Shown here piece after piece: positions 5,366-64,000 of a DNA stretch of 64,000 nt. Each line of letters starts with the position of its first letter. Position 1 is the first letter of the stretch. The notes under the pieces were generated by a model. It saw only the letters and a program-made list of their open reading frames with translations. It made no database searches and was not told where the DNA came from. The stretch is from assembly GCA_977020255.1 (NCBI GenBank), contig CDROCS010000840.1, forward strand, positions 496,001 to 560,000. Direction: 5' to 3'. Origin of the DNA: Obrimoposthia wandeli (Eukaryota). Both the position numbers and the translations under genes were made by a program.

Positions 5366-5412
5366 GCAAGCATCAATCAACAAATAACTCTCTATTATAA
5401 ACGAAATTGAAA

Positions 5413-9929: not shown

Positions 9930-10464
9930 TAGAATATGAGTCATCGATGAGTCATAGGATGAGTCATCGATGAGTCATCTTATGACCTGAGATTGACCTT
10001 AAATGACTTGTCCTCATGACGTCATGACCTTAACTTGACCTTAAAGTACATTGTCCTCATGACGTCATGACCTTAACTTGACATTAACTTGACTTGACCT
10101 CATGAGGTCATGACCTACATCTTGTCCTCACCGTGACCTTAACTTGTCCTTATGCTGTCATGTCCTCATCGTGACCTTAAGCTATGCTCAAAGGGGGGGG
10201 TATGCTCAAAATGTCTTTGTCCTGAAAGACTCACATCCCCGTACTGTATGTGTGTCTTTCAGGACAAAGACATTTTATCCTGAGCATAGGGGGGGTCATG
10301 ACCTCATGAGGTCATGACCTAGATTTTTTTCATGACCTCATGAGGTCAGGACCTACATCTTGACCTCACCGTGACCTTAACTTGACCTCAAAATTTTTGT
10401 CCTCAACTTGACCTGAGCTTGTCCTCAGGGGGGCTTTGTGCCAGAAGTCACACATCTACCTACT
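9930..10464. repeat. Putative right terminal inverted repeat / subterminal region of element A
   Basis: Dense TGAGTCA, TGACGTCA and TGACCT micro-repeats, G-runs, palindromes and a ~60-bp direct repeat, ending at ...CTACCTACT. The left TIR is not in the window, so TIR length cannot be fixed. Confidence 0.7.
10201..10288. repeat. Subterminal hairpin of element A
   Basis: 10208-10236 pairs with 10248-10276 (28/29 bp, 11-nt loop), plus outer TATGCTCA/TGAGCATA; flanked by G-runs. Confidence 0.9.
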
Positions 10465-13400
10465 GATGCACTCCATGCATTGGTTTCCAGTTATGTTAAG
10501 AAATATATGCAATGTGTTAATATGGGAGACAAACTAAACCATCTACAGATATTTGCTAACTTACTTAATGATAATATTTAAATATAATTTTATTTGTTAA
10601 TTTTTAAATTTTTTGATCGGTATATAAGTTGATGATTTTATAAAAAATTTATGGTAAAATTAAACCTGATCATAAAATATAAAAATTCATTAAAAAATTT
10701 AGCGAATTCACGTGGTAAAATTAATAAAAGAAACATTATTTACAATCAAAATGGATTCATAATGGCCATACTTCCCGTTATAGCATCTTTAATTGGTGGT
10801 CTTATAAGTTCAAGAAGTTAAAACTATGCAACAATGCAATTTTATTATATTTCTTAATAAAACTAATAACATTATATTAAGCCTATTCATCACTAAATTT
10901 TTTTTTAAATAATAACAATAATAAAATATATAATAACATTATGTTAAAATCAGCATACAAAGTAATATTAATAAAGAAAGAGAAACTTATATTGAATGTC
11001 GACTTATTATGTAAAGTAGATGCTCCCGATGTACCAGGGACCATTATTGTTGATGTTGATGTAGTTAACTGAGTTACATCAGGAATCATTACCGCGGATG
11101 CTAGTCTAAAACAATATTAAATATAATTAATTTTATTTAAAAAGAAACGAAATTGTAAATTAAATTTAATTGAAAATTCCAATTTATAATAAATATTATG
11201 ACAATTTAAATATTAATAATCATATAATATCTCAAATACTACAATTAAAATAAATTGTACCTATTTAAATTATGTTAGTTGCATCAATAACAAAAAATTA
11301 TAATAATATCAAATAATTACATTCTTTAGTTATATATATATATGCATATAAACAGATTAAAATATATTTAACTTTTATAAAAAATGGGAATAAACAATAC
11401 AAAGTTGTCTAATTTATTTATAAATTTCAATTATTCATGCTGTAATGGTATACAGGGTTAGAAAAATTGACAAAAAGAGTCAAACAATCGAAAACAAATA
11501 CACAAAAATGGTTAAGAAATGAATTATCATATAGTCTGAATAAACCTTTAAGGCGTAAATTCCCTACTATATCATATAAAACTAATGGTATTGATTTGTT
11601 ATAGCAGATGGATTTAATGGAAATGGTATTACTTCAGTAAATGAAGGATTTAAGTATATTTTAATACGTATTGATGTATTTAGTCGTTTTGCAAGGGCAG
11701 TTGGAGTTAAATCAAAATCAGGTATTGATTTATTACATTCAATAGAATCTTTATTAGTTGATGATGTACCAGTAAATATCCAAACTGATGAAGGTAAAGT
11801 ATTTTTTAATTCACATGTTAAGAAATTATTCAAAATTGAAAATATTAATCATTATTCAGTATATTCTCAATATAAAGCTGCAGTAGTTAAAATATGTAAT
11901 AGAACGTTAAGAAAACGGCTAAAGAAATAGTTTACTAAGCAAAGTAATAAGAAATTAATGAATGTATTACCAAAAATTATTTGTGCTTATAATAGTTCTA
12001 AACATAGAGGTTTAGATGATTTAAAACCTGTAGATGTAAATAATAAAAATGCATTTGAAATTTGGTTGAAACAAAATCCATAAGAAAAGAAAGTTAAATC
12101 TAAAATTTATGATTATGTTCGAATATCCAAAATAAGTACAAGTCCATTTATCAAAAAATTTAATCAAAATTGGAGTGATGAAGTTTTTCAAATTCATAAT
12201 ATTAATTATAAACAAAATCCAATAATATATATTTTAAAAGATATTGATAACGTCATCATCAAAGGAAAATTTTATAAACAAGAGTTACAATTAATTGATA
12301 AATCTAAACTATATCGAATACAAGAAATTTTAGAAACTAAATGTCGTGGTAAGAATAAACAATATTACGTAAAGAGGCATGGATACTCTGAACCTTCTTG
12401 GATATTTGCTTTTCAAATTGAATAATGTCAAAATATATTAATTTATCTAGTAACAGTTGTCCGACAACTCAACCTAGCACTACAGCCAATCAATTTATTG
12501 TAGATTGGGAAAACTCTCTAAATTTAGATGGTGAATGTTGTGGAAATTCGAAACTTTAGAAGAATCAAAAATTATAGGTTTTAATGAAATACAAAAAATG
12601 TCTAGTCATATGATGAAATTGTTGGCATAAATAAAAATATTCATGCTAAAATGAGAATTACAATTTATTCTTTAGCTGAATATGAATACGAAGTAAAATT
12701 TGATCAAAATTATTTGATACAAGATAGTTCTTCATTATGTAATATTATAGCCAGTAAATGCAAAGAGGTTTTAAAATCTGTATTATAGATTCAAATGGAT
12801 TATTTGATATTGTAATAAAGAAAAATGTAAAATCAGTTTTATTTGACGAAAAACTAGCTTCTTTATTAGGTTTAAATAATGTTTTCTTTGAGAAACGAAT
12901 TAAAGGTTTTCAAGAACCAAAACTTTCTAGTTCATATAATCAAATGTATATTTATACTAGTTTAACAGATTCTGTCTTAGTAGGATCTGATTATGTTCCA
13001 CTGTTAAAGTCTATTGGGTTAAAATTATTAAAATAACGATATGGAGATGTAGTACATGTTAAAATTATAATTACGTAAAGTATAAACAAGATAAATATAT
13101 TTAAAATATAAAAATGAATACATTAATTATAAAATTTTATAGCAAAAGTTAACAGGGCGGCGAACTTCCTTATTTCATTGTTAAACAATATGGCTCTGGT
13201 TGGTTACAAACTATTTCTAGATTTGCTATTCCATTCATTAAAAATGTTGGTTTAGCAGCTGCTAATGTATTTGGCGAAACGGCATGAACTGCGTTAACAA
13301 ATCCAAAAAACTTAATTTCATCTCTCAAAGAAAATACAGTCAAAGAAGTCAAAACTTTGACTCCAAAATTAAAAAATAATGTTTTTGAGAGTTTAAATAA

Positions 13401-14580
13401 AGTCACAAATTGTGTTGAACAAAATGGAAAGAGTCTTAAACGTAAAAGAAATAATTTAAATAGTATAAACAAACGTCTTAAAGGTACTTTTTTCCAAAAT
13501 TTCTAGTGTAAAATCTGAATTGTGTATTTTTGATAGACCATTACCTCAAGTAGTGATTGAAAATTCAAGTTTTGAAGAAATATTTCCAATCAATTCAATT
13601 ACTGAAAATTTAAATGACATAGAATTTAATATTCATGCATCTGAAGAAGATTATCTGGATTTGAATGATACTTTGATAAATATTAAATTAAAAATTGTAA
13701 ATGAAGTTGGTACTGATTTAATGAAAGATAGCGATGTAACTCCATAGAATTACATGTTTCAAACTCTGTTTAGAGATGTTATTCTAACATTTAATAATGT
13801 AAAGATTGAAGGAGGTAATGAATCGTATACTCATACGGCTATATTCGATACTCTTTTGAATTTTAGTAGTGATACCAAGTATACTAACCTTGAATGCCCT
13901 GGGTATGATGATGATGCAGAAATTCGTAAACAATGGATTAGTGAATCTAAAATATTTTCATTGTAAAATTCAATTTGATTAGATTTCTTTGATCAACCAA
14001 AATATTTAATTCCATGGATTTATATTCATTTGAGATTTATGAGAAATCAGCATAATTTTTCGCTCTATTCAGAAACTTCAAAACCAATTCTTAAAATTCT
14101 AGATGTCAGATTGTATGTTAGACGAGTTAAAGTTGATGCTTCAATAATGATTGGACATCAGTTAGGTTTGCAAAGTCAGAATGCAGTTTACCCAGTTAGA
14201 AAAACTCAGCTAGTAACATATTGAATTCCTTAGGGTTCTTTGGAACTTAATAAAGATTAAATATTTGAAGATTATAGTTTACCAAAGTTCATATTGATTG
14301 CTTTCAAAGCTACACTTCAGGGTGGTAAGGAATATAAAGTTACATCTTCTATGTTAAATACATTTAATACATTTAAGGTTTCAACAATATAATTAATTAT
14401 AAATACTGATTATCGAGAGACTTATAATCTAAATAATTTTAAAAAATTCATTAGCATATATGCAGTAAATTATTCGAAATATGAATCTTTTAGATAAAAA
14501 CTTGAATAATGGTATCAGATTATCTGATTTAAAATCAGGAAGTTCAATTTTTACTTTTCTATTAGTACCAGATTTTTTTA
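10465..14580 (+). mobile_element. Decayed Polinton family B fragment, copy 1 (pX-like, integrase, minor capsid, core, major capsid remnants)
   Basis: NQNGFIMAILPVIASLIGG (~10750), IDVFSRFA and chromodomain KRHGYSEPSW (~11670-12420), QMYIYTSLTDS..VG, QYGSGWLQTISRF, KSELCIFDRPLPQ...LDLND...LFRDV, FTFLLVPDF; many stops and frameshifts. Confidence 0.88.
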
Positions 14581-15666
14581 CGATTGTAAATGGACTAATG
14601 GATTCCTTTCAAAGATCTCCATTTTTCCCAGATTGTCAGGTTATCACCGAGCAATTTTCACTTATTCAATAAATTAATTTTCGGGGTTTATCTTCTTTTT
14701 TCGGGCGTTTTCACATTGTTTTCCATATTTTTATACGTCTTTCTAATGACCTTTTCAATGTCTTCATTTTTTCAAACTCATATTTTAATTAATTTTATTA
14801 TTTTTAAAATATTTATTAATTTTCTATCAACCTTGAATGTTTTTAAGGTTAATTTCCTACTATAAATAATTCTTATTATTTATTTTATTTTCACTTTTCC
14901 TAATTTAACAATAGTCCCTTAAAATTTTATATCAGATTAAGGTAAGAATTTATTTTTGACCAATCCAAAATGGAAATATTATTAGCTTTTAATCATTATT
15001 CTAAAGATTTTGATATTTGTATGGTGAAATTGTCATGTTATATCTTATTTTCATTAAATATTTCAAAACTTACATAAAACAATATATTCAATATTAATGT
15101 AAATCCATCACAATCAATTGAAATTCTCAAAGTTTAAGTAACATTTGCAGAATAAACATTCTCAACAAAAGGGCAAGAACAATATCTTTTTTGAACGTCA
15201 TGGAAAATTTCAAAAATATGAAATCAGGAAATAAACATGAATCAAAAGGTTAATAAAGCCTCTTGTGAATTAGTTAGATATCTCAAAAGAACAGATTTAT
15301 TTCAGTTTCTTCTATTTATTTCTATACTCAGAAACATGGAGGCTTTCAAATGCAAAATTAAAACTATCCATTTAATTCACTACTAGTACATATAGTAAAC
15401 TTTTAAATTCAATAAAGAAGCATAATTTACAATTTACAAAATTATGTAATATAAAATGTTCAAATTACAATGTTACAAAATATTTAATAATTTCATCTGA
15501 TTCTATACTAAAAAACATAATAAATACTTGCACGATAATGTATTAATAAATAATTTTCATGTTTATAATCTTGTTATAACCAATTAAGTTTGATAATATT
15601 TTGGCGTGTATTTAAGTATCGTAAGTTTCAATTTTCGCGGATTGTTATTTTCATTTTCGTTTTAAG

Positions 15667-15956
15667 ATGTCTGCAAAACCCCAATTAAAATATCTTGGTG
15701 CTAGTTATCGGAAGAAAAGTGTTGCCGTGGCGTTGGTAATAAGTTTTTTTGCGGCGGGTAATTTTTGGTATTTTCATCATATGAAGAAAATGCAAGCTTA
15801 TGAAGATTTTTACAAGTACATTTTCACATTTTGGCATTTTGAATAATTTGTTATAGAAATTATGAACCTGAAAAGGCAAGAAAACGTCTTATTGAGTCTG
15901 GTATTTTAAACTCCTATGATAGAGACGGTCGATTCAGAATTGAAAAATTTCAATGA
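15667..15956 (+). CDS. COX6C: Cytochrome c oxidase subunit 6C-like host gene, exons 15667-15815 and 15857-15956 (82 aa)
   Basis: MSAKPQLKYLG...single TM segment...KKMQAYEDFYK/NYEPEKARKRLIESGILNS matches the COX6C KPQ..L...AYADFYRNYD......M...GIF.S pattern. A 41-nt GT-AG intron restores the frame. Confidence 0.78.
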
Positions 15957-18939
15957 TTTAACTGAAGATTGTTGTATTCTAGTTTAAAAATATTTAGGGG
16001 TTTGAGTGTTTTTATTTCCTCATCTTATAAACTATTAATAATTACAGTAATGTTTAATTTTTAAAATACAAGTCGAAAATTGAGTTAATATTTTACAGTA
16101 TATGATAAAAGAAATTTCAGTCAAGTTTATATTTTTGGCATTTTTATGTTAAAAACTGTTTTGTTGGCTTAGTTATATAAATAAATAACTTCAATTTGAA
16201 CCTCTACATACATCTGTCATTACTTTGTGGACAGGAGATTGACCATCGGAATGTTCTCAAAAATGTATAAACTTTAAATAAAACAGTTATTCTGTCATTG
16301 AAATATGAAAACTTGTTTGAATCAAAAAGTTACGTATCCGAGTCTTCATTGTAGGAAGGTCTGGATAATTCCATGAGTCCTTGTATATACTGAAAAAATC
16401 TTTGAGTTTCTTCACTCAATTCAGCGCAGAGGAGTGATTGCATAAGATTGTTGACACTGAAACAGCGCCTACTGGCGACACAACACAGGTAATGTATGGT
16501 CCACAAACATAAATAAACTATAAGAAGTAACACGTGCCATGTATGAGAATATTTTATCCACGCCAAGAGTTGTAAGCCATTTCACATGTGCTGTTCTTGG
16601 TCTTCATTTAGTAGACATTTGTCGATTAAAGCAATAGGGTAAACCAATCACTTAACATGATTACTTTTTGCGTCATGTAAGCAACTACTTCTAATCCTTT
16701 TTTGTTGCAGCTTGTATAACTGATTAAGTGTATTACGTCTCCAATACAGACCGTCCGTATGTGCTAAATTTAGAATTGACGGAGATTTCAGGCATCAATG
16801 GTTGCTTTTCAAATTAGAGAAATCAGGCGACTTAAACTCTTTACGTTCATATAGAATCGCTAAATGATTGATAGGGTGATCAATTGCTTCATGAAGTAAC
16901 TGCTGACTTGTTTTGAGAAAATTTACTTCCAAAAATGCAACCGTGATACACTGATTGATGAAATGAGTAGCACATCAAAATGAAGACTACACTCAGTAAC
17001 ATTGAATTCCATAGATATAAAGTTGAATTCCATAACCTATAGTAAAATGTAATTAATAATTAACACACTAATAAAAACTTACCATTCAGCATAAATGAAT
17101 AACATGTTGCAAATTCAATTCCATAAAAATATGGACGCATACATACACTAACATGTATGACTAGAAAAAAGTTGGTATGTGATTTTAATACATAGGACAA
17201 TGAAACAAAATGAATACCATAAAAGAAAACAACCTAAACTCAGATTTTTGTGTGTTATTTGACGTTTAGAACGAATTTATGGGCATGAAAAGGTAATTTT
17301 GAATTTTTAAACATAAATATGGCAGGAAATGAATTAGAAATATTCTCATTTTGTGAAAAAATGTTAGGTTTAGGGTATTTTTTACTTAGGTCAATGATTT
17401 TACGTACTCTTTAGAGGATAAACCAATACTAGTGGAATTGGGAGGAATATTTAACGACAATTTAAAAAAATTAACTATTTTCAAGATTTTTCGTATTCAA
17501 TCATATCCAAACAAGATTGTAAGAGGTCCGCGAGGCAGATCAAAGCCCAAAATCACAGCGGCAGCATGAAACTTGCAAATGACATAAATCTTGGTGAACT
17601 TTCAAGAAGCTCAGTCAATCCAGTGTACGCCAATGACTATGTATGTACAATGTACATCCTGTATGGAAAATGGTTAGTTTCTAACTTAACAGGTACACAG
17701 AAAGAAAATTACCAAGATTACTAAAAGTATATAAGAAAGATGTTGGAAAAAAGTTATATAAAATAAGTGTTTACTATCCAATTAATAAATAACTCACTTT
17801 GTTACTTCTGCCTTTAATTTGACTTGACAATTTTCATAAAATAAATCCAAAATATTCAAATAATAATAGCAGCATATCCAGCTTGCAGCCAACTTTTGGC
17901 CATCTTGTAGCCATTTAACATCCAGTCATTGGTATTCAGCTTTACAATTGAGCCAACCAATTTGATTGGGTGTATTATGGTGTTCATCATGCAATATTTT
18001 TGTTGATTTGCGCTTCGTTGTTTTATTTTATTTAAATTAACGAAATCGTGGACAGAAACATGTGTTAAAATAAAATCTCGTATAAACTCTGATTAGAGGG
18101 AATATTTAGTAAAAGTGTCATCGCTGAAATATGACATTTATACGTAGTGATATTATTATATTCGTTGATAACTAATTACGCACAACTGTTACGATGTTCT
18201 TGAAAAGTAAGCTGTCGTATTTCTTCGCCCAGAACCCTTAATTTATTGTTTATTTCCTGGCTACGTAGTTGTTTGAAATTGAATCTTTTATATACAATTG
18301 GGTCCTCAAAAAATTAAGGAGCAGAAAATATCAAGTGCTTGTCAATCTTAAAATACTCATTCGTTTATCGCCGTTTTTAGGTTTAGATGTTTGTACAGAA
18401 AATTGCCATTGTGATGTTTGAGTCATAGCACGTGAAATGAGAGTTCAGTAACGGACGCTTCAACAATTTGTTCCATATTCCAGTTTATTGTAACTGAACA
18501 ATAACATTCATATATAATAGAAGATAAATAACAAAGAAGTGAGCGTATTATGTCGATGAAGGGGTTAAGCGAATTAGTACTTCATCTGATATCTAGTCCA
18601 TTGTACAATAAACTTAATGAAATTTTATTCGATTCTTTACATTAAATGTTAATTCAATATATTAGGAATTGAAAATTTAAACTGACCACTCAATTCTCGA
18701 GGCATGTAAACATTTGGACTACTATATTTGTGTTGTATTTTAACAAATTTAGATATAAATTTAAGTTTCAAAATTGAATTATATGTTTGTACGGTTGTTT
18801 GTGTGACTTAGCCAATTTTAAAATTTAACAATCTACACAAATGTATATATTGATAAATAGAAAATCAGTGCTTACAAATCTTTATAGACTAAACAATTTC
18901 TTAATATTTTCTGTCAGTTCAAAAAAAACACAAAATCTT

Positions 18940-24913: not shown

Positions 24914-26339
24914 CCGAGACATACATACACGTTTCAACTGCACAAGAGCAGTTTACTGATGGCAGATAATGCAGTGGTCAAGGTAGCGAAATTGGAAGAT
25001 TAAGCGAGTAGGATACTTGAATTCCATCAAGAGTGAGTTCGAGCAGGTGCCTACGATTCTTATCCTGTCATTTAGGTTCGCTTCTGAAATCCCAAATTGT
25101 CCTAGCTTTTACCTACTGTAGCATACCACCGCCACTAAATCATTATATATGACTAATAATTTTATATTAAAATTATAATTGTTTTCTTAAACTTAGCGCC
25201 TCTTCTACACTCATCGCAAAAACTATTCCAATCCCATTTTACACCTATTAAAACTGAATATCTCATAGTGCACTCATAGGGCTCAAATACCCGAGAGGAC
25301 ATCTAAGGGCCAATGAGGACTCTTTGAGCGGAGCGATATATTTAAAGGGTCGCAAAAATTCTTATCTGAATATGTACAAGTGTTAGTTCAACCTTAAAGT
25401 TATAAAGTAAAGATAATCGTACGCAAAACTTTGTTTCATGAGAGATGAAACGCATTCATTTTTATCAGTTATATTTTTATGCTAATTAAAAGTTGAAATA
25501 ATTTTCTTTTCTTGATTTACTTTGGATCGTTTTCGAAAAACAACACAAATTTTTACAGAGGTAACTTTCAAAATTTAAAAATAAAATCTTTTTATTTTCC
25601 AAAGGCGTTTAAAAACTTTGCTGTTCTATCCATGAAGGAATTTCAGGTAATAAAATGTATTTACTGGTCCAAGAAATAAACCATGCTAACTATTTTATTT
25701 TCAGTAAAGTTTTCCTTTATGTAAAATATTATTCATATTTCCAAATCCAATGAAAATTGCTATGTCGGATTTCACATGCGCTTAATTCCATTTCCCACTA
25801 CAGTCATCGAAGTGTGTGCTTCCGTTTGATGGACTGTTGAGGAACCTGGCATATTGACTCTGATTAATGCACATGCGTTATCTTTAGGAGAGAAAAGGAG
25901 AAGAAATGATGCACTCCATGCATTGGTTTCCAGTTATGTTAAGAAATATATGCAATGTGTTAATATGGGAGACAAACTAAACCATCTACAGATATTTGCT
26001 AACTTACTTAATGATAATATTTAAATATAATTTTATTTGTTAATTTTTAAATTTTTTGATCGGTATATAAGTTGATGATTTTATAAAAAATTTATGGTAA
26101 AATTAAACCTGATCATAAAATATAAAAATTCATTAAAAAATTTAGCGAATTCACGTGGTAAAATTAATAAAAGAAACATTATTTTCAATCAAAATGGATT
26201 CATAATGGCCATACTTCCCGTTACAGCATCTTTAATTGGTGGTCTTATAAGTTCAAGAAGTTAAAACTATGCAACAATGCAATTTTATTATATTTCTTAA
26301 TAAAACTAATAACATTATATTAAGCCTATTCATCACTAA

Positions 26340-26680
26340 AAAAATTTAAAAATAATAACAATAATAACAATAATAAAATATATAATTATATAATAACATT
26401 GTGTTAGAATCAGCATACAAAGTAACATTAATAAAGAAAGAGAAACTTACATTAAATGTTGACTTATTATGTAAAGTAGATGCTCCAGATGTACCTGGGA
26501 CCATTATTGTTGATGTTGATGTAGTTAACTGAGTTACATCAGGAATCATTACCGCGGCTGCTAGTCTAAAACAATATTAAATATAATTAATTTTTTTAAT
26601 TACTTTTTATGTTTCTTACTCTGCATATGAGCATCCATTGAATATTTATTCATTGATCCTGTTTGGCATATTTTACATTT
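26340..26680 (-). CDS. Small spliced C2H2 (matrin/U1-like) zinc-finger gene inside family B, antisense between pX and integrase
   Basis: KCKICQTGSMNKYSMDAHMQSKKHK (C-x2-C-x12-H-x5-H) joins in frame, via a 38-nt GT-AG intron (26566-26603), to LAAAVMIPDVTQLTTSTSTIMVPG...STFN/GTAAGT. Start exon unclear. Confidence 0.55.
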
Positions 26681-29600
26681 TAATATAAATATAAATAATA
26701 ATTAAAAAAAACTCACGTATTCATTTGTAATCTTGATTTATTAAAATTTATTTTAAAAAAAACGAAATAGTAAATTAAATTTAATTGAAAATTCCAATTT
26801 AAAATAAATATTATGTCATTTTAATTATTAATAATAATATAATATCTCAAATACTACAATTAAAATAAATTGTACCTATTTAAATTATGTTAGTTGCATC
26901 AATAACAAAAAATTATAATAATATCAAATAATTACATTCTTTAGTTATATATATATGCATAAAATCAAATTAAAATATATTTAACTTTTATAAAAAATGG
27001 GAATAAACAATACAAAATTGTCTAATTTATTTATAAATTTCAATTCTTCATGCTGTAATGGTATACAGGGTTAGAAAAATTGACAAAAAAAGTCAAACAA
27101 TCAAAAACAAACACACAAAAATGGTTAAGAAATGAATTATCATATAGTCTGAATAAACCTTTAAGGCGTAAATTCCCTACTATATCATATAAAACTAATG
27201 GTATTAATTTGTTATAGCTGATGGATTTAATGGAAATGGTATTACTTCAGTAAATGAAGGATTTAATAATATTTTAACTTGTATTGATGTATTTAGTCGT
27301 TTTGCAAGGGCAGTTGGAGTTAAATCAAAATCAGGTATTGATTTATTACATTCAATAGAATCTTTATTCGTTGATGATGTACCAGTAAATATCCAAACTG
27401 ATGAAGGTAAAGAATATTTTAATTCACATGTAAAGAAATTATTCAAAACTGAAAATATTAATCATTATTCAGTATATTCTCAATATAAAGCTGCAATAGT
27501 TAAAATATTTAATAGAACGTTAAGAAAACGGCTAAAGAAATAGTTTACTAAGCAAAGTAATAAGAAATGGGTGTATGTAATACCAAAAATTATTTATGCT
27601 TATAATAATTCTAAACATAGAGGTTTAGATGATTTAGATGTAAATAATAAAAATGCATTTGAAATTTGGTTGAAACAAAATCCATAAGAAAAGAAAGTTA
27701 AATCTAAAATTTATGATTATGTTTGAATATCCAAAATAAGTACAAGTCCATTTATCAAAAAATTTAATCAAAATTGGAGTGATGAAGTTTTTCAAATTCA
27801 TAATATTAATTATAAACAAAATCCAATAATATATATTTTAAAAGATATTGATAACGTCATCATCAAAGGAAAATTTTATAAACAAGAGTTACAATTAATT
27901 GATAAATCTAAACTATATCGAATACAAGAAATTTTAGAAACTAAATGTCGTGGTAAGAATAAACAATATTACGTAAAGAGGCATGGATACTCTGAACCTT
28001 CTTGGATATTTGCTTTTCAAATTGAATAATGTCAAAATATATTAATTTATCTAGTAACAGTTGTCCGACAACTCAACCTAGCACTACAGCCAATCAATTT
28101 ATTGTAGATTGGGAAAACTCTCTAAATTTAGATGGTGAATGTTGTGGAAATTCGAAACTTTAGAAGAATCAAAAATTATAGGTTTTAATGAAATACAAAA
28201 AATGTCTAGTCATATGATGAAATTGTTGGCATAAATAAAAATATTCATGCTAAAATGAGAATTACAATTTATTCTTTAGCTGAATATGAATACGAAGTAA
28301 AATTTGATCAAAATTATTTGATACAAGATAGTTCTTCATTATGTAATATTATAGCCAGTAAATGCAAAGAGGTTTTAAAATCTGTATTATAGATTCAAAT
28401 GGATTATTTGATATTGTAATAAAGAAAAATGTAAAATCAGTTTTATTTGACGAAAAACTAGCTTCTTTATTAGGTTTAAATAATGTTTTCTTTGAGAAAC
28501 GAATTAAAGGTTTTCAAGAACCAAAACTTTCTAGTTCATATAATCAAATGTATATTTATACTAGTTTAACAGATTCTGTCTTAGTAGGATCTGATTATGT
28601 TCCACTGTTAAAGTCTATTGGGTTAAAATTATTAAAATAACGATATGGAGATGTAGTACATGTTAAAATTATAATTACGTAAAGTATAAACAAGATAAAT
28701 ATATTTAAAATATAAAAATGAATACATTAATTATAAAATTTTATAGCAAAAGTTAACAGGGCGGCGAACTTCCTTATTTCATTGTTAAACAATATGGCTC
28801 TGGTTGGTTACAAACTATTTCTAGATTTGCTATTCCATTCATTAAAAATGTTGGTTTAGCAGCTGCTAATGTATTTGGCGAAACGGCATGAACTGCGTTA
28901 ACAAATCCAAAAAACTTAATTTCATCTCTCAAAGAACATACAGTCAAAGAAGTCAAAACTTTGATTCCAAAATTAAAAAATAATGTTGTTGAGAGTTTAA
29001 ATAAAGTCACAAATTGTGTTGAACAAAATGGAAAGGGTCTTAAACGTAAAAGAAATAATTTAAATAGTATAAACAAACGTCTTAAAGGTACTTTTTTCCA
29101 AAATTTCTAGTGTAAAATCTGAATTGTGTATTTTTGATAGACCATTACCTCAAGTAGTGATTGAAAATTCAAGTTTTGAAGAAATATTTCCAATCAATTC
29201 AATTACTGAAAATTTAAATGACATAGAATTTAATATTCATGCATCTGAAGAAGATTATCTGGATTTGAATGATACTTTGATAAATATTAAATTAAAAATT
29301 GTAAATGAAGTTGGTACTGATTTAATGAAAGATAGCGATGTAACTCCATAGAATTACATGTTTCAAACTCTGTTTAGAGATGTTATTCTAACATTTAATA
29401 ATGTAAAGATTGAAGGAGGTAATGAATCGTATACTCATACGGCTATATTCGATACTCTTTTGAATTTTAGTAGTGATACCAAGTATACTAACCTTGAATG
29501 CCCTGGGTATGATGATGATGCAGAAATTCGTAAACAATGGATTAGTGAATCTAAAATATTTTCATTGTAAAATTCAATTTGATTAGATTTCTTTGATCAA

Positions 29601-30534
29601 CCAAAATATTTAATTTTATGGATTTATATTCATTTGAGATTTATGAGAAATCAGCATAATTTTTCGCTCTATTCAGAAACTTCAAAACCAATTCTTAAAA
29701 TTCTAGATGTCAGATTGTATGTTAGACGAGTTAAAGTTGATGCTTCAATAATGATTGGACATCAGTTAGGTTTGCAAAGTCAGAATGCAGTTTACCCAGT
29801 TAGAAAAACTCAGCTAGTAACATATTGAATTCCTCAGGGTTCTTTGGAACTTAATAAAGATTAAATATTTGAAGATTATAGTTTACCAAAGTTCATATTG
29901 ATTGCTTTCAAAGCTATACTTCAGAGTGGTAAGGAATATAAAGTTACATCTTCTACGTTAAATACATTTAATACATTTAAGGTTTCAACAATATGTTAGG
30001 TTTAAGAATTAGGAAATTAAAATAATTAGTCGATTAAATACTAAAATAAAAATCCTTGAAAGCAAGGTTGAAAATTAAATAAAATATTAATTTTAGATTC
30101 AAAATTAAAATTAGTGGAAGTTAGGATAAAAATTAGGAGGACCACGAAGGTCGTGTATAGTGTAGGATATATAAGTTTAGAGTTAATTAACCAAAAGTGC
30201 AAAAAGCAAAAGGGAACAATTTGGAAATAAAGAAAATTACGAACGTCAATCAAAGAAACGGTAAGCACATTTTCGTGCAGTAAGTTAATCGATTTATTTT
30301 AGCTCTTGATATATTTCAGCTGTCCAATATTGCTGACTGACAGCCCATAATCCCGTAAAAACAGGAATTATTTCAGCTGTCAACATTACTGATTGACAGC
30401 CAGAGATTACAGAAATCAACTATAAAAGTCGCTACCAAACCAATTACAGGGACACAACAGACAAAATAGAACCAGCAGAAAAGCCAGTAAGTCAAGTTGG
30501 TGAATTAAATTGAATTAAATTAATTTAGAATTGT

Positions 30535-55650: not shown

Positions 55651-58600
55651 TGTTGCCATTTTGTTTATGTGTGCACATGTTGTTATTTGTTATTGCAATT
55701 ATTGTAATTATGTATTATGAATAATAATACATATTTTATGGATTATGATAAAATAAATCAATAATATTTCAAGATCTTGTCTTCTCAACCTAAATTCCTC
55801 AATTACTTCATCTCAACAAATTGTGCGCCCGAACAAATTACAACGAACAATCGTCAACTCTCGATCCAGCAACCATCACAACTACTCTCTACAATTACTC
55901 TCTACAATTACACTCTACAACTACTCTCTACAACTACCCTCTACAACGTACCGAACGCACTGCACCGAACAAATCAATTTTCAATCTGCTTCTCACTACA
56001 AAACAATAGAGAAACTACAGAAACAATCTACAAGCAAACAATCCAACCGTTCTTCCATCGTTCCGGAAACTTCTGACGGTGGGAATCACAACATTTAACA
56101 TTTGCCTTTTTTATTTTTTCCCTAGGGTTTTCCTAACTGTACTAGACACTAACACTTCTAATTACAACACTTCTTTTCACCAACATTCAAAATACAACAA
56201 ACACAAATGCCAAAAACACAACCACCAACCATCACACACATTAAGTCTCCACAATACTTTGTTGATGAAAGCAACAATCCAACCGATTGAATAAATTTAA
56301 CACATAATATTTTAACATCAACAGACAAACACACCAACATATAGATCACAACACACATCATAAACAAGCTGCCCGCTACCACAATCAAGACCATAGCGGA
56401 TGATGTTAATGACATTCTAAGCCACAAAGACCTCACGAAGGAGTTAATTAGGTACATAAATAAAAATCGAGGAAACGTGACAAAAAACGCACTCGAGCAA
56501 TTACTCAATCCATCTAACACAGACTCTAAAACACCATCACAACTACTCAAACATTTGAAAAAACAATTATACAAATTGACCCACAACACTCACACCACGG
56601 ATCCAACATCCTCAAATTGTGTTTCCTTAAAACTTTACCACCAAACACCAGAGACATAATCACCCCAACCAACACCATAGACATAGAGAAAATGGCTGAA
56701 ATTGCAGACAATATCCTTCATAACAGAGTCCACACTGAGACCAACCACATCAGACACCCACCACAAAACGAAGACACTCAACAAAACACAATATTACTAG
56801 CCATCAGTCATCAACTAGCGGAGAATAACAAACTCCTCAGGGAAATCACTCTTAATAATCGAAACAACAACCAAAGACATATAACTCTAGAAACAACTCC
56901 CCATCCAACAGAGATCAACCACCTCACTCAAAATACCATCCAACACACCAACCACAAAACTTTATCACAAGAAACTACAAAAACCGCCCCATTTCAACCA
57001 AGAAAACCAAGCACCTGCACATCACCAGAGAAATCAATCACCACACTTTCACCGGATAACTCATTCACCCCACTTCAAATTTATCGCACCACAAACATCG
57101 CAAAAGGATTCACAACCAAACATGTGTTACTACCATAAAACCTACGGAAACAACGCATATAAATGTGAAACATCGTGCTCATTTCCAAAAAACGATTAAT
57201 ACCAAGCATAAACGCACCATTATACGTCGGTATAAATTCCACTTTCAAGGTGCAACCATCCAACACCACATATAATTTTTTAATAGATTCCGGATCATCT
57301 TTATCACTAATTCCATATACACTATGCCCCCAACAAAATTATTAGACATACAACACACATCACATCAACCTCATCGCAGCAAACAACACCACAATCAAAA
57401 TGTACGGCGAAACAAAACTGAATTTAATTATAAATAATACAGCATACAAATGGAATTTTATCATCGCGGACGTATCCCAACCGATAATAGGATCCGATTT
57501 CTTCATAAAACACAATTTTATGATAGACTGCAAAGACAGAACAATATTAACGAAAACCGACTTCACAAAAACTGTCAACGAAGAAAACTCAATAATACAA
57601 GGAAACAAAACGAACTACCGCGGCACCTACCACAATAATAATCGACATCCACTATGCAACTCTTCATATACGCCTAATAAATCATCATACAAACAATCAC
57701 TCCTGAAAAACATCATATCTGAAACACCCGAAATTAACCACACTGATAAACAGAACATCACAGCACCGAGCACACCTATACAAGAGAAGCACAACACGAC
57801 AAACAAAATTATTACAACAGGATATCCATGCCACGCCAAAGTAAGACCACTATCATCAGACAAATTAGCAGCAGCCAAAACTACTTTCTCCAATTTATTA
57901 CAAGAAGGAACGATCAGAGTGTCAGATTCTGATTGGGCATCTGCACTCATGATGAAAAAGAAAACATCAGGAGAATGGCACTGTTGTGGAGATTATAGAG
58001 CACTCAACACTATGACAACACCTGACGCCTATCCATTATCTTTAATCAACGATATCATAAGAAGAAAGGTGGGAGCATTTGGTCTAAAGAACTCTGCATC
58101 AACTTTTCAACGACATATGGATAAAATATTTTCCAACATCCCGAATGTCATAACATCGACGAAATATTAATAGCTAGCCCAGACGAAAAACAACACTCCT
58201 TAGAAATCACAATTGTAAAAAACCTAATCAAAAAACATCAATTAACACTCAACGAAGAAAAATGCAGCTTTAATAGAAGAACCATCAATTTTTCAGGTTT
58301 CACACTATCAAAAGACGGCATCAGTTCCAACACCGGAAAATAAAAACGATAAGCGAATTACAACCACCTAACACGGTAAAACAACTACGCGGATTTCTAG
58401 GAATGATAAACTTATATCACCAACATATTAAAAACGCCGCACATATACTAGCACCACTCAACGAAATAATAAAAAACAGAAATAAAAATTCGAAAATAGA
58501 ACTTAACGAACAATAATTGAAAGATTTTGACAATGCAAAAGAAGCACTTAAAACGGCAACTACATTATCCAGCTCAATACACAACGCTGAGATATCACTA

Positions 58601-59074
58601 ACCACTAACGTATCCAATTTAGCAACAGGAGCCGTACTCAATCAGATTGTCACCGAAAAAATATCCCCACTAGCAATTTTCTCAAAAAAACTAAAGACAC
58701 ACCAAATCAAATCTTCAACATATAACCGCGAATTACTAGCCATTTATCAAGCCACCAAACAATTCGAAAATCAACTAGTAGACAAAACATTCACCACTTA
58801 CACCGACTACAAACCTCTAATACACGCATTACATATGAAAAATCCGACACCAAGACAACAACGACAACTAAACTATATCTCCCAATTCAACACAACAATT
58901 AAATATATTCCAGGTTCCATGAACATTATAGCAGATACGTTATCTAGACCATCCGAATTATACGAAATAAACACAATCGATAACCTCTTACAACCACACG
59001 AAATCATCGGGAAACAAGAACTACATAAATTCACACGTAGTTCATACAACTTCACAATGTTCAACAATATATGA
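55651..59074 (+). mobile_element. Ty3/Gypsy retrotransposon (CsRN1/Kabuki-like), decayed, truncated after RNase H
   Basis: Putative LTR from TGTTGCC 55651, gag from ~56207, protease FLIDSGSSLSLI (~57280), RT KVRPL...WASAL...GEW.CCGDYRALN..T.PDAYPL, RNase H LAIFSKKL...STYNRELLAIY...YTDYKPL; no integrase. Confidence 0.9.
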
Positions 59075-59079
59075 GAAGT

Positions 59080-59255
59080 GTAAAGTTCGGTTCTAAAACA
59101 ATAGCACACAAAGAACTACCCCCCGAACAAGGAACGAGGAACAAAGCACATCTGGAATTCGCTTAGTCATTCAGATGTGCTTTGTTCCTCGTTCCTTGTT
59201 CGGGGGTGAGGGGGGTAGTTCTTTGTGTGCTATTGTTTTTGAACCGACACTTTAC
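59080..59255. repeat. Long subterminal hairpin of element C
   Basis: 59080-59154 pairs with 59172-59255 (about 75 bp, 17-nt loop, one ~8-nt bulge on the right arm and two small mismatches or indels). Confidence 0.92.
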
Positions 59256-59493
59256 GTTTTCAATCCTGATTGGTTTTATGTGTCATTTACAATTATGTAG
59301 GTTAATTTTCTGTAGACATTAAATATATAGTTCAAAAAAAATTTAAAAATTTAAAATTAGAAATTAAAAAATTTTAAAATTTTAAAATTAAAATTTTAAA
59401 AATTACAAATCAAAAATTAAACTTTTAAAAATTAAATTTTGAAATTAAACACAGTCCCAAGATTTTTATTTGCAACTATTTAATTTACTTAGT

Positions 59494-59550
59494 ACTGCGA
59501 CCCCATTCCAGGAGTTACACTGTCCCGCATAACCGGACAGCTATTGCAGT
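59494..59550 (-). other. Structured 57-nt motif, copy 1 (three-way junction)
   Basis: 50/57 identical to 63832-63888; three stems readable by eye. Confidence 0.7.
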
Positions 59551-59592
59551 TTTAATCTTGAAAACGTTATTGCTTATATAAGAAGTCTATGT

Positions 59593-59829
59593 TTATACAT
59601 AATTATATTTATTATCACAATCCATGCTTTCTTCTTCAACTTTAATGATTGTTGCAACTTTAAGTTTAAAGTCTCCATTAAACAGGTGATACATATAAAG
59701 TTCTTCAATCCTTGAGACAAAATGTTCTGATGCAACAAATAAGTTAAAGTATTTTTCAGTATACTGTACCATCAAGGTAGGGCTCAGGTTATCACGGAGA
59801 GCTTGCAATTTTTCTTTAGAAGTAGTCAT
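59593..59829 (-). CDS. Small 78-aa ORF downstream of element C pPolB
   Basis: Intact ATG-TAA ORF with a TATA-like CTATAAATATA about 45 nt upstream; no family recognised. Confidence 0.4.
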   Translation of the reverse strand: MTTSKEKLQALRDNLSPTLMVQYTEKYFNLFVASEHFVSRIEELYMYHLFNGDFKLKVATIIKVEEESMDCDNKYNYV

Positions 59830-60089
59830 TTGAAATAATAAGAAATTGGTTGAAATGTGTATATATTTATAGAGAATTTGTTAAAATTATCCAATGAAAT
59901 TATCCAATGAGTAGCTAGTAGGAAGTCAAGACATGGTTATGATACATACAATGTATTAAAAATAAACATCATTAAAAATATATACATACTATCGCATTAA
60001 AAAGATATATACAATATTCTGCTTATTACAATAAAAATAAGAAGGAAATTAGTCAATACTTTCAAGAGGTTTCCCGAGATTTTATACAC

Positions 60090-63000
60090 CTATCTTAGAC
60101 TATAGTGTCCATATGCGACGGATTTGTTTTTCTCAATCCAAACCCTTTATCGTCATAACACCTTAACGCAATTTTATCATTATACATTGTAACTAATTGA
60201 TGATTACGAGATAAAATACGTGTCTTACCGGAAGTTATAATTTTATCATCGACATAACACTTGATGTAATGCCTATGTCTGATTTCGGTTTGTTTAAGGG
60301 AGATACCCTTAGCCCTCATACTCGTTTTCAATGAGTAGCATTTAGGTTTCAGAAATACCCATTCATCATAAATCACTGTCCCCTTGCTTTCATCTTTAAA
60401 CTTTCCAATCACATTTCGATGAGAATCGTTAAATAACTCATGTGTGAGCGGGTAATTACTAGTATCTAACATCTGATCTTTAATCATTTGTTTTAAGAGG
60501 ACATATTTATCTACATGCTTACACTCTAAGTAAAACGGGTCTGTATCCATTGCAACTATGTTGATATCACAATGATATTTCTTACGATACGTAGTTGGTA
60601 CATACGTAGTTTAGATAAGTCCAACACAGCTTAACCAATATATGAGGGTCGATCCAGACTAATTTCTTTCTTTTGCATAAATAAAAGATTGAGATTGTCG
60701 GTTATTTGATTATGCTTCTTAAACCAAGGGCTTGAAACAAGTTTAGTAAACTGCCGATCATTCTTGGTAAGACGGATATCTTTACGTTTTTTAAGATTTT
60801 CCACCGTCTTACCATTTATTGAGTTATTTTGAGTTTATAAAACTCTTTATCAAATGTAGTAGTACCCTCTGCCCGTTTCCGGCTATTGATATCATTATAT
60901 GTTTTAAATATAAGAGCTTGATGAAACTTTATTGCTCTATGCACTTGTTTAATTTCTGCACCCAGAAACAAGTAAAATTGTAGTAGTTGTGAGTGTATGA
61001 TGTAATTATTTTTATCCTCATGGGTCATCAACAGCTTTGAAGCTTTTGAGCCGGCAGGGATTTCTCTATTAGGCGCAATCAGTAAGTCATCAAGTTTATC
61101 ATGAATACTGATGGGTATGTGTAAATAAATTTCCAACAAGTATCCATGTTCTTTAAGACTTAAGTCCTGCATATTAATCTGTATGTGGTAACGGTTGACT
61201 CAAGGCCCAGCCATATAGGTTGTTTATGTCAATGTATAGGAGGAATGTTTCATCTGTTGTTTTAACGTAATGTTTATTGATGAAAGTCATCCCTCCCCAT
61301 ATCCCTGCCTCAAACATGTTATACATTTCGGGATCATGCAATAAATCCACGTCATACTCTAACGTTTTTAATGCGCTAGCCCAAATGAGACCGGGGATAC
61401 TAAAGAAATTGAGCGCCTCTAGATTATCATCATCTCTTACTTTCTGTCTAAAGGCCTCAAAAACATCACATAACAGATACACGTCAAGTTTCATATACTC
61501 AAGCATGTAGTCTTTAATAGTATTACACCCTAATACGGTCCACATCCTTAGGGCTTCATTATATTGTTGATCAGTGACTCGCGAAGGAAACTCAGATTTA
61601 GCGGGTAACTGCCTCTCCATAAGCCTATCAACACCACTAATACATTAATATGGAAATACCACCTTACTTGTTGCAATATTAGGGTTTAGGTATTGTATAG
61701 TATAAGGACAACTTGGCAAGTATGAAACTAAGGATTCAAGACTTGACGTTGTAAAAAGGTATGAATCAATGAATTTCATAGTCCCCCTCTTCATCTCTAT
61801 ACAGAGAGACATGAACCTTTCACTTGATTTAGGGATAATTAAAAAGTATTTACCTTTCAAGTCGGCATATTTTAGAATATGATGTATGTCATAACCCATA
61901 AGGTTATGAAACACCACAGGTAAAACTGGTCTCTTTGCAAACTTGCGACTTAAATTGCATTTGTTGCATGCCAAACCCATGTATTTACCCGTGATATGAT
62001 CATGATCTCTAACCATACGATCGTTTAATTTTTTACAAAGACAACAAATGGTGGCGCAATAGATTTAGACCAGTCAGAAAACTGACACTTGGTCTCTTTA
62101 GGCATCGTAAACAAGGTTGTTAAATCTGTATTAATATTACAATGTGCCCTGTGTTTGTCATATGAAATCGTGGTTCAAAAACCGAAAAGATATTTCTCAC
62201 ACCACATTATATTTTTGAGTATTTAAAAGTCTATTCAGGTTTGTATTCCCTGTATAGTGATAATTACCGCTCTGTTCCAACAGCAAAAAGTTTACTACTT
62301 TTTCGCACTGCTTAAGACTCGTTTTATAAATAACGTTAACATCTGGGTTTTTAAACACTAGATGACTACTATGAGTACTACCTTTGTAGGTTTATAGAAA
62401 AATACTGTTATCGCAATATTATTGAGTTTTTCAAACGCCTTGATGCAGTCTATCCTCATAGACCAGGCTCGCATATTAGTTCATTTAAATAATCATTATA
62501 GTTTTCAACTCTATGTCTGTTTCGATTGTGATCTTTATAACGTAGGATGCTGAGAACAGCGTATTTAAAACACTGATCATCAGTATTATTTACGTTCACT
62601 ATAAATAGTGTTTTAGCAAGCGCAACCGGGGTTTTTATAAATGATGATCCTGCTACGCTTAAAGTGCAGTAAATTTAAAGGATACCAACAGAATTTTAAA
62701 TACTGACGATCCCGAACTCATATCCTTATAAATTTCAATTTTATTGTTGAGCTCAACTTTTTTTTGAAGTGATAAAATCTTGTTCAAAAATATTTGCTTT
62801 ACAGCTTACATACCATGTTTTATGTTTACCCTCATTATTGACAAATTCTGTTTCAACACAAAACTGTACTTTACAGGGACCAAACATATCTATACTGCTA
62901 GTAAGTTCAGTTAGCATAGTATCGTTAATGTATAGTTTAAGCATGTTTAACCCACTAACATCAAAAACAAGGTTTGATTGAATTGCACCTCCTATTTGAT

Positions 63001-63681
63001 TGTTAAAAGTTAATGTATTATCTGAATTAATTGTAACAATATCATCAAAGTCATCATCCGTAATAGTTAGGAGCGAGTCGAAAAAATCATTTTCTGTTAT
63101 AAACTCGTCCTGATCTATAAGTTCATCAATATTATTATTTAAGATTTCATTAGTTATCTGATTAGGGGTTAAAGGCTCAATAATTTCTACAACTTCAGGA
63201 TTAGTATCAATTTCTTCAACACTATCCAGTTCCCACGAGTCTACCACATCAAACTCTTCATTAAGATTATTATTAGGTAAAATATTAGTTTTTGCTATTT
63301 TATTGTTGTTTATTGTACGCTCATTACTTTACATTTGTACGTTGACTTTTTAGATTTAAAAAACGTCAGATGATCCTTATGATCATTATAAAATGTTTGA
63401 TAATCAATACAATATAACACATCACAATGTGGACAAATAAAACCGCTTTTAAATTTATAATATTTAAGCATTACACTATGACATTCTATTCCATGATTAA
63501 CGTTTGTGCAATACTTGTACAATGTACATAAGTTACTTCCTCCACGAAGTTTAGGGTATACATGGATAATAGCCCTTTCATGTAAAACATTACTGATAGT
63601 AGCTTCCCTTTCAAAGGGCATGCCATTACGGTTAAAATAAATTTGGTCAGTCCCGAAGACTTCATATAATTTATACTTTCT
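60090..63681 (-). pseudogene. Ubiquitin-like leader - Zn finger - acidic linker - OTU-like region - pPolB, multiply frameshifted
   Basis: ...VYPKLRGG/SNLC, FICPHC..IDYQTF...H..HL, AGSSFIKTP...DDQCFKYAV...NYHY, RDHDHITG..CNKCN, FHNLMGYD, KFIDSY, FSIPGLIWASALK, YIDINNLYGWA, MDTDPF, GKFKDE, LKPKCY, RAKG. Confidence 0.92.
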
Positions 63682-63831
63682 TTAGTTAATTAAAATATTT
63701 TTTAAACGGGATATTTTCAAAACCCGAGTATATCTCATTTACATTAAAATTTTCTAACGAATTAACAGGTGACCCTACACGTGTCCCTGGTTTAAAAAGT
63801 AAGGGGTAACCTCTTGATTTATTTAACTTAC

Positions 63832-63888
63832 TCTGCGACTCCATTCCAGGAGTTAGACTGCCCCGCGTTACCGGACAGCTATCGCAGT
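63832..63888 (-). other. Structured 57-nt motif, copy 2
   Basis: Direct repeat of 59494-59550, located about 150 nt upstream of the ubiquitin-like leader. Confidence 0.7.
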
Positions 63889-63954: not shown

Positions 63955-64000
63955 AGAAGAAGAAGAAGAAGAAGAAGAAGAAGAAGAAGAAGAAGAAGAA
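63955..64000. repeat. (GAA)n microsatellite running off the window end
   Basis: About 15 perfect GAA units. Confidence 0.98.

Follow-up and report, generated by a model that had tools for sequence, protein, structure and literature searches.

The 57-nt motif that occurs twice in the window (the whole 64-kb stretch of DNA analysed here) is likely to act as a small folded regulatory RNA of a Polinton/Maverick element and not as a site for cutting DNA out, since it is unusually constant between lineages. In the reading that we prefer, with a probability of roughly 40%, the motif is a sense-strand RNA element, and an RNA of about 100 nt from each TIR would mimic, or act as a decoy for, the copy of this element that the polymerase mRNA contains. 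Two testable Polinton cis-elements are described: a likely promoter word that precedes most ORFs, and the 57-nt motif, which lies behind this word in both TIRs and is also found in the polymerase frame. Should the motif turn out to be a site in DNA, or a duplication that has been conserved, it would be of modest interest.

The host element

The motif is hosted by a Polinton/Maverick of about 15 kb. Among 24 ORFs scanned against Pfam, the polymerase ORF matches PF03175 (DNA_pol_B_2), which is protein-primed family B, and none matches family C (PolC/DnaE). The polymerase had been described as family C in an earlier note on this DNA, and the correction takes away what would have been the bigger surprise. 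Homologues of the polymerase are numerous (1,663 found, many with the PF03175 label). A sister copy, L067, encodes an rve integrase (E 8.7e-13) with an additional chromo-like match, and an A32-type packaging ATPase (Pox_A32, E 5.5e-7); a TBP homologue is also among the proteins encoded by the element. The 407-aa ORF has only a weak match to Capsid_N (E 0.016), and the protease was recognised by eye from His/Cys motifs alone. No relative was found for the capsid query among viral contigs, or for the longer protein in a profile-library search; when the linker was used together with the ubiquitin-like stretch in such a search, one of the five matches was a credible relative, and the PDB sequence search gave no match. 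The element ends are of the AG...CT type, and the TIRs are several hundred bases long. Inverted end matches were seen in all five elements compared, and target-site duplications of 6 bp in three of four, these being the three for which both ends were located. In the window, the element runs past the window end into the putative protease and capsid genes, and the following features are relevant here:

59074..59597, no strand: TIR of the Polinton copy; the end starts with AGAAGT at 59074, inner boundary given approximately
59087..59247, no strand: palindrome of about 160 nt close to the element end, outside the motif
59465..59470, minus: AATAAA, candidate poly(A) signal, +81 counted from the motif start
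59477..59493, minus: AU-rich tail, common to the internal copy
59494..59550, minus: motif copy 1 of 57 nt, of the TIR type, for which a three-way junction is predicted
59506-59489, minus: AUG within motif copy 1, opening a 5-codon frame
59570..59578, minus: TATA-like word 28 nt upstream of copy 1, with one mismatch to TATAAACAA
59593..59880, minus: small outward-pointing terminal ORF, stop codon 43 nt upstream of copy 1
60095..63674, minus: polymerase region, PF03175 at 61177-61644 and 61648-62064, with gaps relative to L066 and L068
63815..63831, minus: tail behind the internal copy, AU-rich and coding at that site
63832..63888, minus: motif copy 2, internal type, in the polymerase frame (DCDSCPVTRGSLTPGMESQ), in-frame ATG at 63844-63842
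63957..64000, no strand: start of an expanded (AAG)n microsatellite within the low-complexity linker upstream of copy 2

Number and placement of the copies

The direct repeats at 59494-59550 and 63832-63888 had been reported to be identical at 50 of 57 positions, and both the coordinates and the identity were borne out. The earlier tally of the seven differences agrees with their positions, 6, 20, 22, 28, 33, 49 and 57, and the AU-rich tail is present after both copies as described. Positions 20, 22 and 57, together with the flanks, distinguish the TIR form from the internal one. The window contains only these two copies, where none is expected (100 shuffles). The two had been thought to bracket the polymerase cassette, an arrangement that does not hold, and to mark transcription-unit boundaries, which is not supported for the internal copy. 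Copy 1 is part of the TIR and has its mirror image at the opposite end of the element, while copy 2 sits within the reading frame leading into the polymerase, that is, in a predicted coding region. Intact elements have three copies, one in each TIR and one within the predicted polymerase frame, and at all three sites the motif is oriented with the coding strand. The homology between the TIR and internal copies sets in with the closing stem's first base, which follows the TATA word by 28 nt, and continues past the fold into the AU-rich tail. An internal-type loop is found in three TIR copies.

In the genome, a 16-mer taken from the motif has 3,469 exact matches. All 20 singleton or doublet motif stretches that were checked lie within this Polinton family, so the motif is not a stray SINE or MITE fragment, the alternative that the earlier note had named as refuting its view. 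With a covariance model (R1), neither the other Polinton families of the window nor 56 related contigs (244 kb) yielded another copy; the absence from the related contigs is weak, as their polymerases are mostly 30-55% identical and most of these contigs have no ends. Viral and prokaryotic contigs scanned for exact patterns contained no copy, and a phage BLAST gave chance-level matches only. Lineages more than about 15% distant may have been missed among the genome copies. The share of contig depth given below for position 48 comes from contigs of four sequencing runs of one sample and does not describe expression.

Sequence constraint between lineages

In copies picked by their flanks, none of the 57 TIR motif sites has shared variants, compared with 10 of 103 sites in the near flank (p 0.015) and 51 of 184 in the far flank (p 2e-7). 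Under a stricter threshold the motif has no advantage over the near flanks (p 0.16), and an earlier, motif-biased sample gave p 0.42 for the constancy of the TIR motif. Between the old and the young lineage, the TIR motif differs at 2-3 of 57 sites and its flanks at 17 of 70 (p 0.001-0.003), while the comparison with the terminal ORF gives p 0.11; the tail differs at 1 of 28 sites. The TIR-specific loop bases are kept in both lineages. Once copies have been inserted, the motif decays at 0.125 per cell, which is above the 0.06-0.09 of the adjacent ORF, the upstream region and the tail.

The internal motif has no differences between the old and young lineages at its 57 sites, against 27 of 90 upstream, and none of its 19 third codon positions has changed, against 23 of 127 downstream (p 0.044); the older internal sample has only eight copies. 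In the young sample, the internal motif is not more constant than the downstream coding DNA (p 0.23). Judged by these sequence comparisons, of which some are non-significant, the motif is constrained beyond its flanks and beyond coding needs, and the constancy covers the non-coding TIR copy as well as the third codon positions of the internal copy.

Predicted fold

The minus strand is the coding strand, and a three-way junction is predicted there, with folding energies of -22.8 and -25.7 kcal/mol for the two window copies (z -3.1 and -2.9). On the plus strand the values are -15.2 and -18.1 kcal/mol; the z-scores of the two DNA strands are similar. Save for the terminal palindrome, no other 57-nt stretch of the element folds as stably as the motif, and the strand is the sense strand in every case. 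At positions 14, 28 and 49, recurrent changes turn sense-strand U-G pairs into Watson-Crick pairs. The minus-strand junction claimed earlier thus stands as a predicted fold, but the P3 hairpin as it was drawn is mismatched in most TIR copies.

The covariation analysis that had been suggested as a check gave no covariation: there are no two-sided changes among 26 copies, and in 28 older copies it counted four pairs against a shuffled mean of 3.7; its power is low because the divergence is shallow. At position 48 a lineage-wide change in the TIR (29 of 29 loci, 82-85% of contig depth) breaks a predicted pair without compensation. At position 55, a change in the older lineage leaves a TIR pair unformed in 23 of 27 copies, again without compensation. 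The young TIR form can adopt a closing stem of 7-8 bp with a 7-nt loop. From the earlier proposal of a conserved structured signal, what remains is a constrained, Polinton-specific sense-strand cis-element; conservation of the structure is not supported by covariation.

Rfam has no match over the motif at E<=10 or E<=5 and no ribozyme family there, in agreement with the earlier statement that no hammerhead, twister or pistol core was recognised. The Rfam matches obtained are miRNA models on the terminal palindrome, under their gathering scores.

Several other identities for the motif were considered and rejected. A tRNA, tRNA-like sequence or tRNA-derived SINE was dismissed as ARAGORN found none in nine loci and there is no independent dispersal, and the A-box and B-box words are background, since one element alone has 98 and 138-146 matches that are just as good. 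Searches by eye and by word for ribozymes of the HDV-like, twister, pistol and hammerhead kinds were negative, and hatchet and other self-cleaving families have no covariance-model match over the motif in Rfam. An in-frame CAG raised the idea of a branch point and acceptor, with the AUG supplied by a flatworm spliced leader, but there is no pyrimidine tract. Loop-loop pairing like that of phi29 pRNA would reach 3 bp at most by eye.

Likely promoter word and putative transcript

There are 10 TATAAACAA sites in L067. Seven of them are 31-47 nt upstream of an ATG that opens at least 60 codons (5% for random positions), and six of these seven front listed ORF starts; the site in the TIR has no such ORF. 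From this placement, TATAAACAA is likely to be the TATA promoter of the element. The word is found 28-29 nt ahead of the motif in 50 of 53 young TIR copies; older copies have it 28 nt ahead in 24 of 28 cases, and window-like ones in 28 of 30. Downstream, 51 of 53 young TIR copies carry AATAAA at +81, as do 20 of 30 of the window-like type and 11 of 28 older ones, and the interval from the motif to AATAAA has only a 5-codon frame (52 of 52 young and 16 of 18 older). In both TIR copies, the distance from the stop of the terminal outward gene to the motif is 43-94 nt. The idea that ATAGCTGTCC is a dispersed word was dropped, as it has one extra site in L067 and none in L069.

Under the preferred reading, transcription would start from the likely TATA promoter (TATAAACAA) in each TIR, the motif copy would form the 5' end of a transcript of about 100 nt, and this transcript would end near AATAAA. 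The three-way junction would form in vivo on the sense-strand RNA, the polymerase leader, which has two predicted introns, would presumably be spliced, and one protein would bind the RNA in its TIR form as well as in its internal form. The short TIR RNA could then tune polymerase output or divert a host silencing factor. A more specific form, which we put forward tentatively and consider somewhat doubtful, is that of a Polinton-encoded gene for a small non-coding RNA, duplicated with the TIR and TATA-driven, whose RNA would mimic the structure of the element inside the polymerase coding sequence and act as a VA-RNA-like decoy that controls polymerase expression.

Alternative explanations

It is unlikely, on balance, that the motif is a binding site in double-stranded DNA, made of nested inverted half-sites and bound by a protein of the element or the host in transcription, replication or packaging, with the RNA fold as a by-product of palindromy. 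This would suit the conservation of the sequence including the loops, the uncompensated changes in pairing and the similar z-scores of both strands, and the element encodes candidate binders (TBP homologue, integrase, A32 ATPase, polymerase). However, the orientation of the motif tracks the coding strand at all three sites, the changes from U-G to Watson-Crick pairs suit one strand only, and the spacing to the TATA word places the motif at the predicted start of a transcript. A history of duplication is still less probable. Here about 75 nt would have been shared between the polymerase linker and the TIR, without function in the TIR, and kept alike by coding constraint on the internal copy with occasional gene conversion. 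The homology does extend into the tail past the fold, the internal-type loop in three TIR copies points to short exchange, the internal copy is in frame, and no motif was found outside this Polinton family. On the other hand, frequent conversion would erase the TIR-specific loop bases that persist in old and young lineages, and neither the unchanged third positions of the internal copy nor the few differences of the TIR copy (2-3/57 against 17/70 in the flanks) fit, nor does a homology edge that coincides with the closing stem's first base and follows the TATA word by 28 nt.

The motif could also signal 3'-end formation or termination to the two outward terminal genes, either as a structure with AATAAA or as a site of tRNA-like processing; the internal copy would then be a passenger. 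Both TIR copies follow the outward gene's stop by 43-94 nt on its strand, with AATAAA behind them, and the long closing stem and 7-nt loop open to the young form would fit; yet this leaves the fixed TATA spacing and the stronger conservation of the internal copy unexplained, cleavage there would cut the polymerase mRNA, and the tRNA-like version meets with no ARAGORN genes in nine loci and A- and B-box-like words at background, so that we regard it as improbable. Recombination sites that excise a polymerase-only circle, as the earlier note suggested, or a new self-cleaving ribozyme are very improbable. Two of the three copies are in direct orientation, the fold is compact, and three single-contig joints between the internal and the TIR motif were seen; these joints fall within the stretch where the motifs are nearly identical, with a short side of 23 nt for the one joint that has this value, and are indistinguishable from ambiguous placement. 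Hybrids of internal upstream sequence and TIR loop are absent from the genome, and all five matches of internal loop and TIR tail are flanked upstream by TIR sequence, which means that no excision scar is among them. The 16 ORFs scanned include no tyrosine or serine recombinase. For self-cleavage, also suggested earlier, Rfam gives no ribozyme family, and the core words are missing from the sense strand.

Comparison with known systems

For the papers compared here, we take PMC8097293 to be Barreat and Katzourakis 2021, PMC8502044 to be Starrett et al. 2021, PMC11161782 to be Krupovic et al. 2024 and PMC6431247 to be Arkhipova and Yushenova 2019. The closest system, as far as the available portions of these texts go, are the Polinton/Maverick (adintovirus) elements (PMC8097293, PMC8502044, PMC11161782, PMC6431247). 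The present element resembles them in its pPolB, rve integrase, A32-type ATPase and capsid-like ORFs, in TIRs of several hundred bases with AG...CT ends, in its 6-bp target-site duplications and in its size of about 15 kb. In the available portions of the same four papers, the conserved non-coding features given for Polintons are 6-bp TIR end motifs only, gene control is barely described, and, supplements aside, a structured motif common to TIRs and polymerase gene is not mentioned (PMC8097293, PMC8502044, PMC11161782, PMC6431247). The word "hairpin" does not occur in the available text of two of them, supplements aside (PMC8097293, PMC8502044). In the wider Polinton/Maverick, adintovirus, virophage and planarian literature, supplements and subscription papers aside, no such motif or small RNA gene was found.

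HDV-like, twister and pistol ribozymes are known from retroelement terminal repeats. Hammerhead ribozymes occur in the terminal repeats of Penelope/Terminons, according to the portion of PMC6431247 available. The likeness lies in a small fold that recurs in a mobile element's terminal repeats, but here this is a DNA element, its sense strand has no words of a catalytic core and Rfam gives no match. The mascRNA of MALAT1 is a tRNA-like 3'-processing structure of about 57-60 nt with a closing stem and two hairpins. The motif is similar in size and in having a closing stem and two hairpins, one loop is loosely T-loop-like, and the TIR copies are placed behind an ORF. It differs in having no Rfam or ARAGORN match, a loop without the tRNA T-loop invariants (by eye), a closing stem that is mismatched in the older lineage, and no evident triple-helix element upstream.

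The adenovirus VA RNAs and the EBERs of EBV are short, GC-rich, branched RNAs of DNA viruses and have been proposed to be protein decoys. They are Pol III transcripts of about 160 nt with A and B boxes, and the EBERs have an upstream TATA. The motif differs from them in its 57-nt core, in boxes at background level, in the AATAAA downstream, in having no Rfam match and in the further copy within coding sequence. It shares with them a short, GC-rich, branched RNA (predicted here) and a proposed role as decoy, and its candidate TATA word at -28/-29 may correspond to that of the EBERs. If the preferred reading is true, the short TIR RNA would be the Polinton counterpart of the adenoviral small RNAs, and Polinton regulation would become testable through RNA-end mapping alone.

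Placement of the two copies

Two 57-nt copies do stand in the window as the earlier note described them: they are identical at 50 of 57 positions, with the seven differences placed as it had tallied them, and a 23-letter motif pattern allowing up to three mismatches finds only this pair (none in 100 shuffles). The minus strand is the best-folding strand of both, as the three-way junction that note had drawn (z -3.1 and -2.9), and positions are numbered 1-57 along it.

Motif copies and probable ubiquitin-like domain
59494-59550, minus-strand fold, copy 1 (terminal inverted repeat, TIR)
63832-63888, minus-strand fold, copy 2 (internal)
63313-63681, minus strand, likely ubiquitin-like domain ending KLRGG (Atlas lead 0.85, model, stand-alone relative P0125)
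L020 (a fetched stretch) 1552-2040, plus strand, same domain

Copy 1 lies in the TIR about 420 nt from the element end and is mirrored at the opposite end; both TIR copies point outward, and each follows a terminal gene, 43-94 nt past its stop codon. Copy 2 lies within a reading frame leading into the polymerase. The bracket noticed earlier therefore consists of one TIR copy and the internal one, out of three per element, and the 4.3-kb spacing is due to deletions in the broken window element. Although its microsatellites change in length, a predicted spliced leader is open and in frame to the internal motif in 21 of 29 copies (five are out of frame, three are without splice mark). In L157-L186 this predicted leader lies some 300-600 nt ahead of the internal motif and has a TATA word, a short first exon, two introns of about 45 nt and microsatellite-rich exons. 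Deletion breakpoints fall inside the internal motif in four copies (L082, L183, L231, L243).

Likeness to a stand-alone ubiquitin-like protein (P0125, 28%) begins directly past the internal motif and its tail. The KLRGG-ending stretch, fused in frame just ahead of the polymerase's Cys/His N-terminal region, is likely a ubiquitin-like domain, judging from a structure model of low confidence (pLDDT 45), for which Foldseek ranks ubiquitin-family chains highest (best E 2.8e-3). Since a vOTU deubiquitinase domain is present in Polinton pPolB, according to PMC11161782, the GG is a plausible processing site.

Host element and copy number

The ORF fragments between the copies, previously assigned to a family C polymerase, match PF03175 (protein-primed family B), and no family C domain was found among 24 ORFs. 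Inverted end matches of 260-580 nt occur in five full-length sister copies, both AG...CT ends with 6-bp target-site duplications were located in three of four elements examined, and one sister copy, L067, encodes rve integrase, A32 ATPase, a capsid-sized ORF, BIR, RING and TBP. By these sequence features the element is a Polinton/Maverick, and the features set out in PMC8097293, PMC8502044, PMC11161782 and PMC6431247 fit it.

Genome searches with either motif copy were scored for the best 40 of 204 and best 40 of 469 candidates. A 16-mer from the motif has 3,469 exact genomic matches (reversed control 0), and most of the 100 listed form triplets, in which the second copy stands 4.9 kb from the first with the same orientation and the third, after another 9.2 kb, is inverted. 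By that count, elements should number around 1,100. Singleton and doublet matches were followed up in 20 fetched stretches, every one of which lies inside this Polinton family, so the motif is no free SINE or MITE, an alternative raised earlier.

Cargo of L067 (a sister copy) includes a single-repeat TBP homologue (PF00352, E 2.8e-13), BIR and RING (IAP-like) and an adenovirus protein X-like ORF.

Cargo genes of L067, from domain matches
7834-8139, minus strand
7444-7788, minus strand
6891-7436, minus strand
5268-5594, minus strand

Window positions 1-10450, 10464-16000 and 25907-30000, 56500-59070 hold two more Polinton families, whose shared genes are about 70% alike, and, adjoining the element end, a decayed gypsy-type retroelement (RNase H match). 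Two different Polinton families each have a long, near-perfect palindrome a short way inside an end (59087-59247, 10160-10320).

Likely promoter word

The TATA-like word TATAAACAA has 10 sites in L067, seven of them 31-47 nt ahead of an ATG opening a long frame (six being previously listed ORF starts), with 6/10 such sites in L069, another fetched stretch, and 3/5 in the window's other Polinton family, against a random-position background of 5% scored under a slightly stricter rule. At that distance TATAAACAA precedes most ORFs of this family, and it is likely a shared promoter word.

Sites of TATAAACAA
L067: 7835, 6900, 6607, 5957, 5630, 3050, 2641, 629, minus strand
Window's other Polinton family: 126, 3049, 4729, plus strand

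The TIR site has no such long ORF behind it. It stands 28-29 nt ahead of motif position 1 in 50/53 young copies, and 28 nt ahead in 24/28 older and 28/30 window-like copies. TATA promoters start transcription about that far downstream, which here would be at the beginning of the closing stem. An AATAAA stands at +81 in 51/53 young, 11/28 older and 20/30 window-like copies, with only a 5-codon frame between. The internal copy has no TATA at fixed distance; the nearest site is about 550 nt upstream, ahead of the leader.

Sequence constraint

Copies were resampled by flank, so that the motif itself was not the selection criterion; a shared variant is one carried by at least 4 copies (stricter threshold 8). 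The p-values are indicative only, since variants shared by a lineage do not count as independent and the AT-rich flanks are hard to align. Among 56 TIR copies (TIR present in 27/40 fetched stretches, plus 29/30), shared variants occur at 0/57 motif sites against 10/103 in the near flank (p 0.015; 0.16 at the threshold of 8) and 51/184 in the far flank (p 2e-7). An earlier motif-biased sample yielded p 0.42. Among 55 internal copies, four rearranged rows having been dropped, 1/57 sites carry a shared variant, against 20/74 for the linker upstream (p 5e-5) and 24/377 in downstream coding DNA (p 0.23).

In the older lineage (30 loci; 34/247 ORF sites differ from the young copy), the TIR motif differs at 3/57 sites, of which one is particular to the young copy in the comparison; the flanks differ at 17/70. 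The older internal motif, present in 8/40 fetched stretches, differs at 0/57, against 27/90 upstream and 30/380 downstream; at third codon positions it is 0/19 against 23/127 downstream (p 0.044). In inserted copies the motif decays no more slowly than the DNA next to it, which argues for constraint in the replicating lineages and not for low mutability.

Possible functions

With a probability of roughly 0.4, the motif acts at the RNA level: TIR copies would be transcribed from the TATA word as short RNAs whose 5' fold, if formed in vivo, repeats an element of the polymerase mRNA, and this decoy may titrate a protein that binds the mRNA element. No other 57-nt window of the element folds as stably, the terminal palindrome excepted (20,762 folds, windows of 33% G+C or more); at each intact site the stable strand is the coding one. 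One-sided changes at positions 14, 28 and 49 agree with minus-strand pairs. What speaks against the fold is that 23/27 older-lineage copies do not form pair 3-55 and that position 48 differs in 29/29 flank-selected TIR loci and 82-85% of contig depth; this change mismatches the third hairpin drawn earlier, and the computed fold then moves to one with an extended closing stem and a hairpin of 3 bp. Covariation, a check proposed with the original observation, is absent, with 0 two-sided changes among 26 copies and a count at shuffle level in 28 older copies. A binding site in duplex DNA, to which the fold of one strand would be incidental, is a possible reading, if a rather unlikely one.

It is unlikely that the motif is no more than a duplication maintained through conversion and the coding constraint. 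Quite improbable is a 3'-end signal, which would suit the position past terminal genes and the AATAAA, and would sit oddly with the internal copy in a frame. A recombination site or ribozyme has very little in its favour. The internal-upstream plus TIR-loop hybrid pattern has 0 genomic matches, its reciprocal two, and the internal-loop plus TIR-tail pattern, with one mismatch, five. Each of these five has a TIR flank upstream, and three have the internal loop complete. By sequence these patterns are rare short exchange and not the excision of a polymerase-only circle proposed earlier; among the contig joints listed, at least three single-contig joints lie within near-identical motif, indistinguishable from ambiguous placement. 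Rfam, also suggested earlier, ARAGORN and word checks on the motif returned nothing.

Comparison with known systems

The motif has no match in the families tested, and no copy turned up beyond this lineage group; literature searches at listing level returned no description of such a motif. L154, an unrelated viral contig with a polymerase relative, repeats a 24-nt palindrome at 1553-1594, 4342-4383 and 11570-11870, which may be an analogue of the motif without sequence likeness. The element is of a known kind; the motif, whose copy number, position, spacing and constraint are observed, is a real, constrained and undescribed cis-element of putative structure and function.
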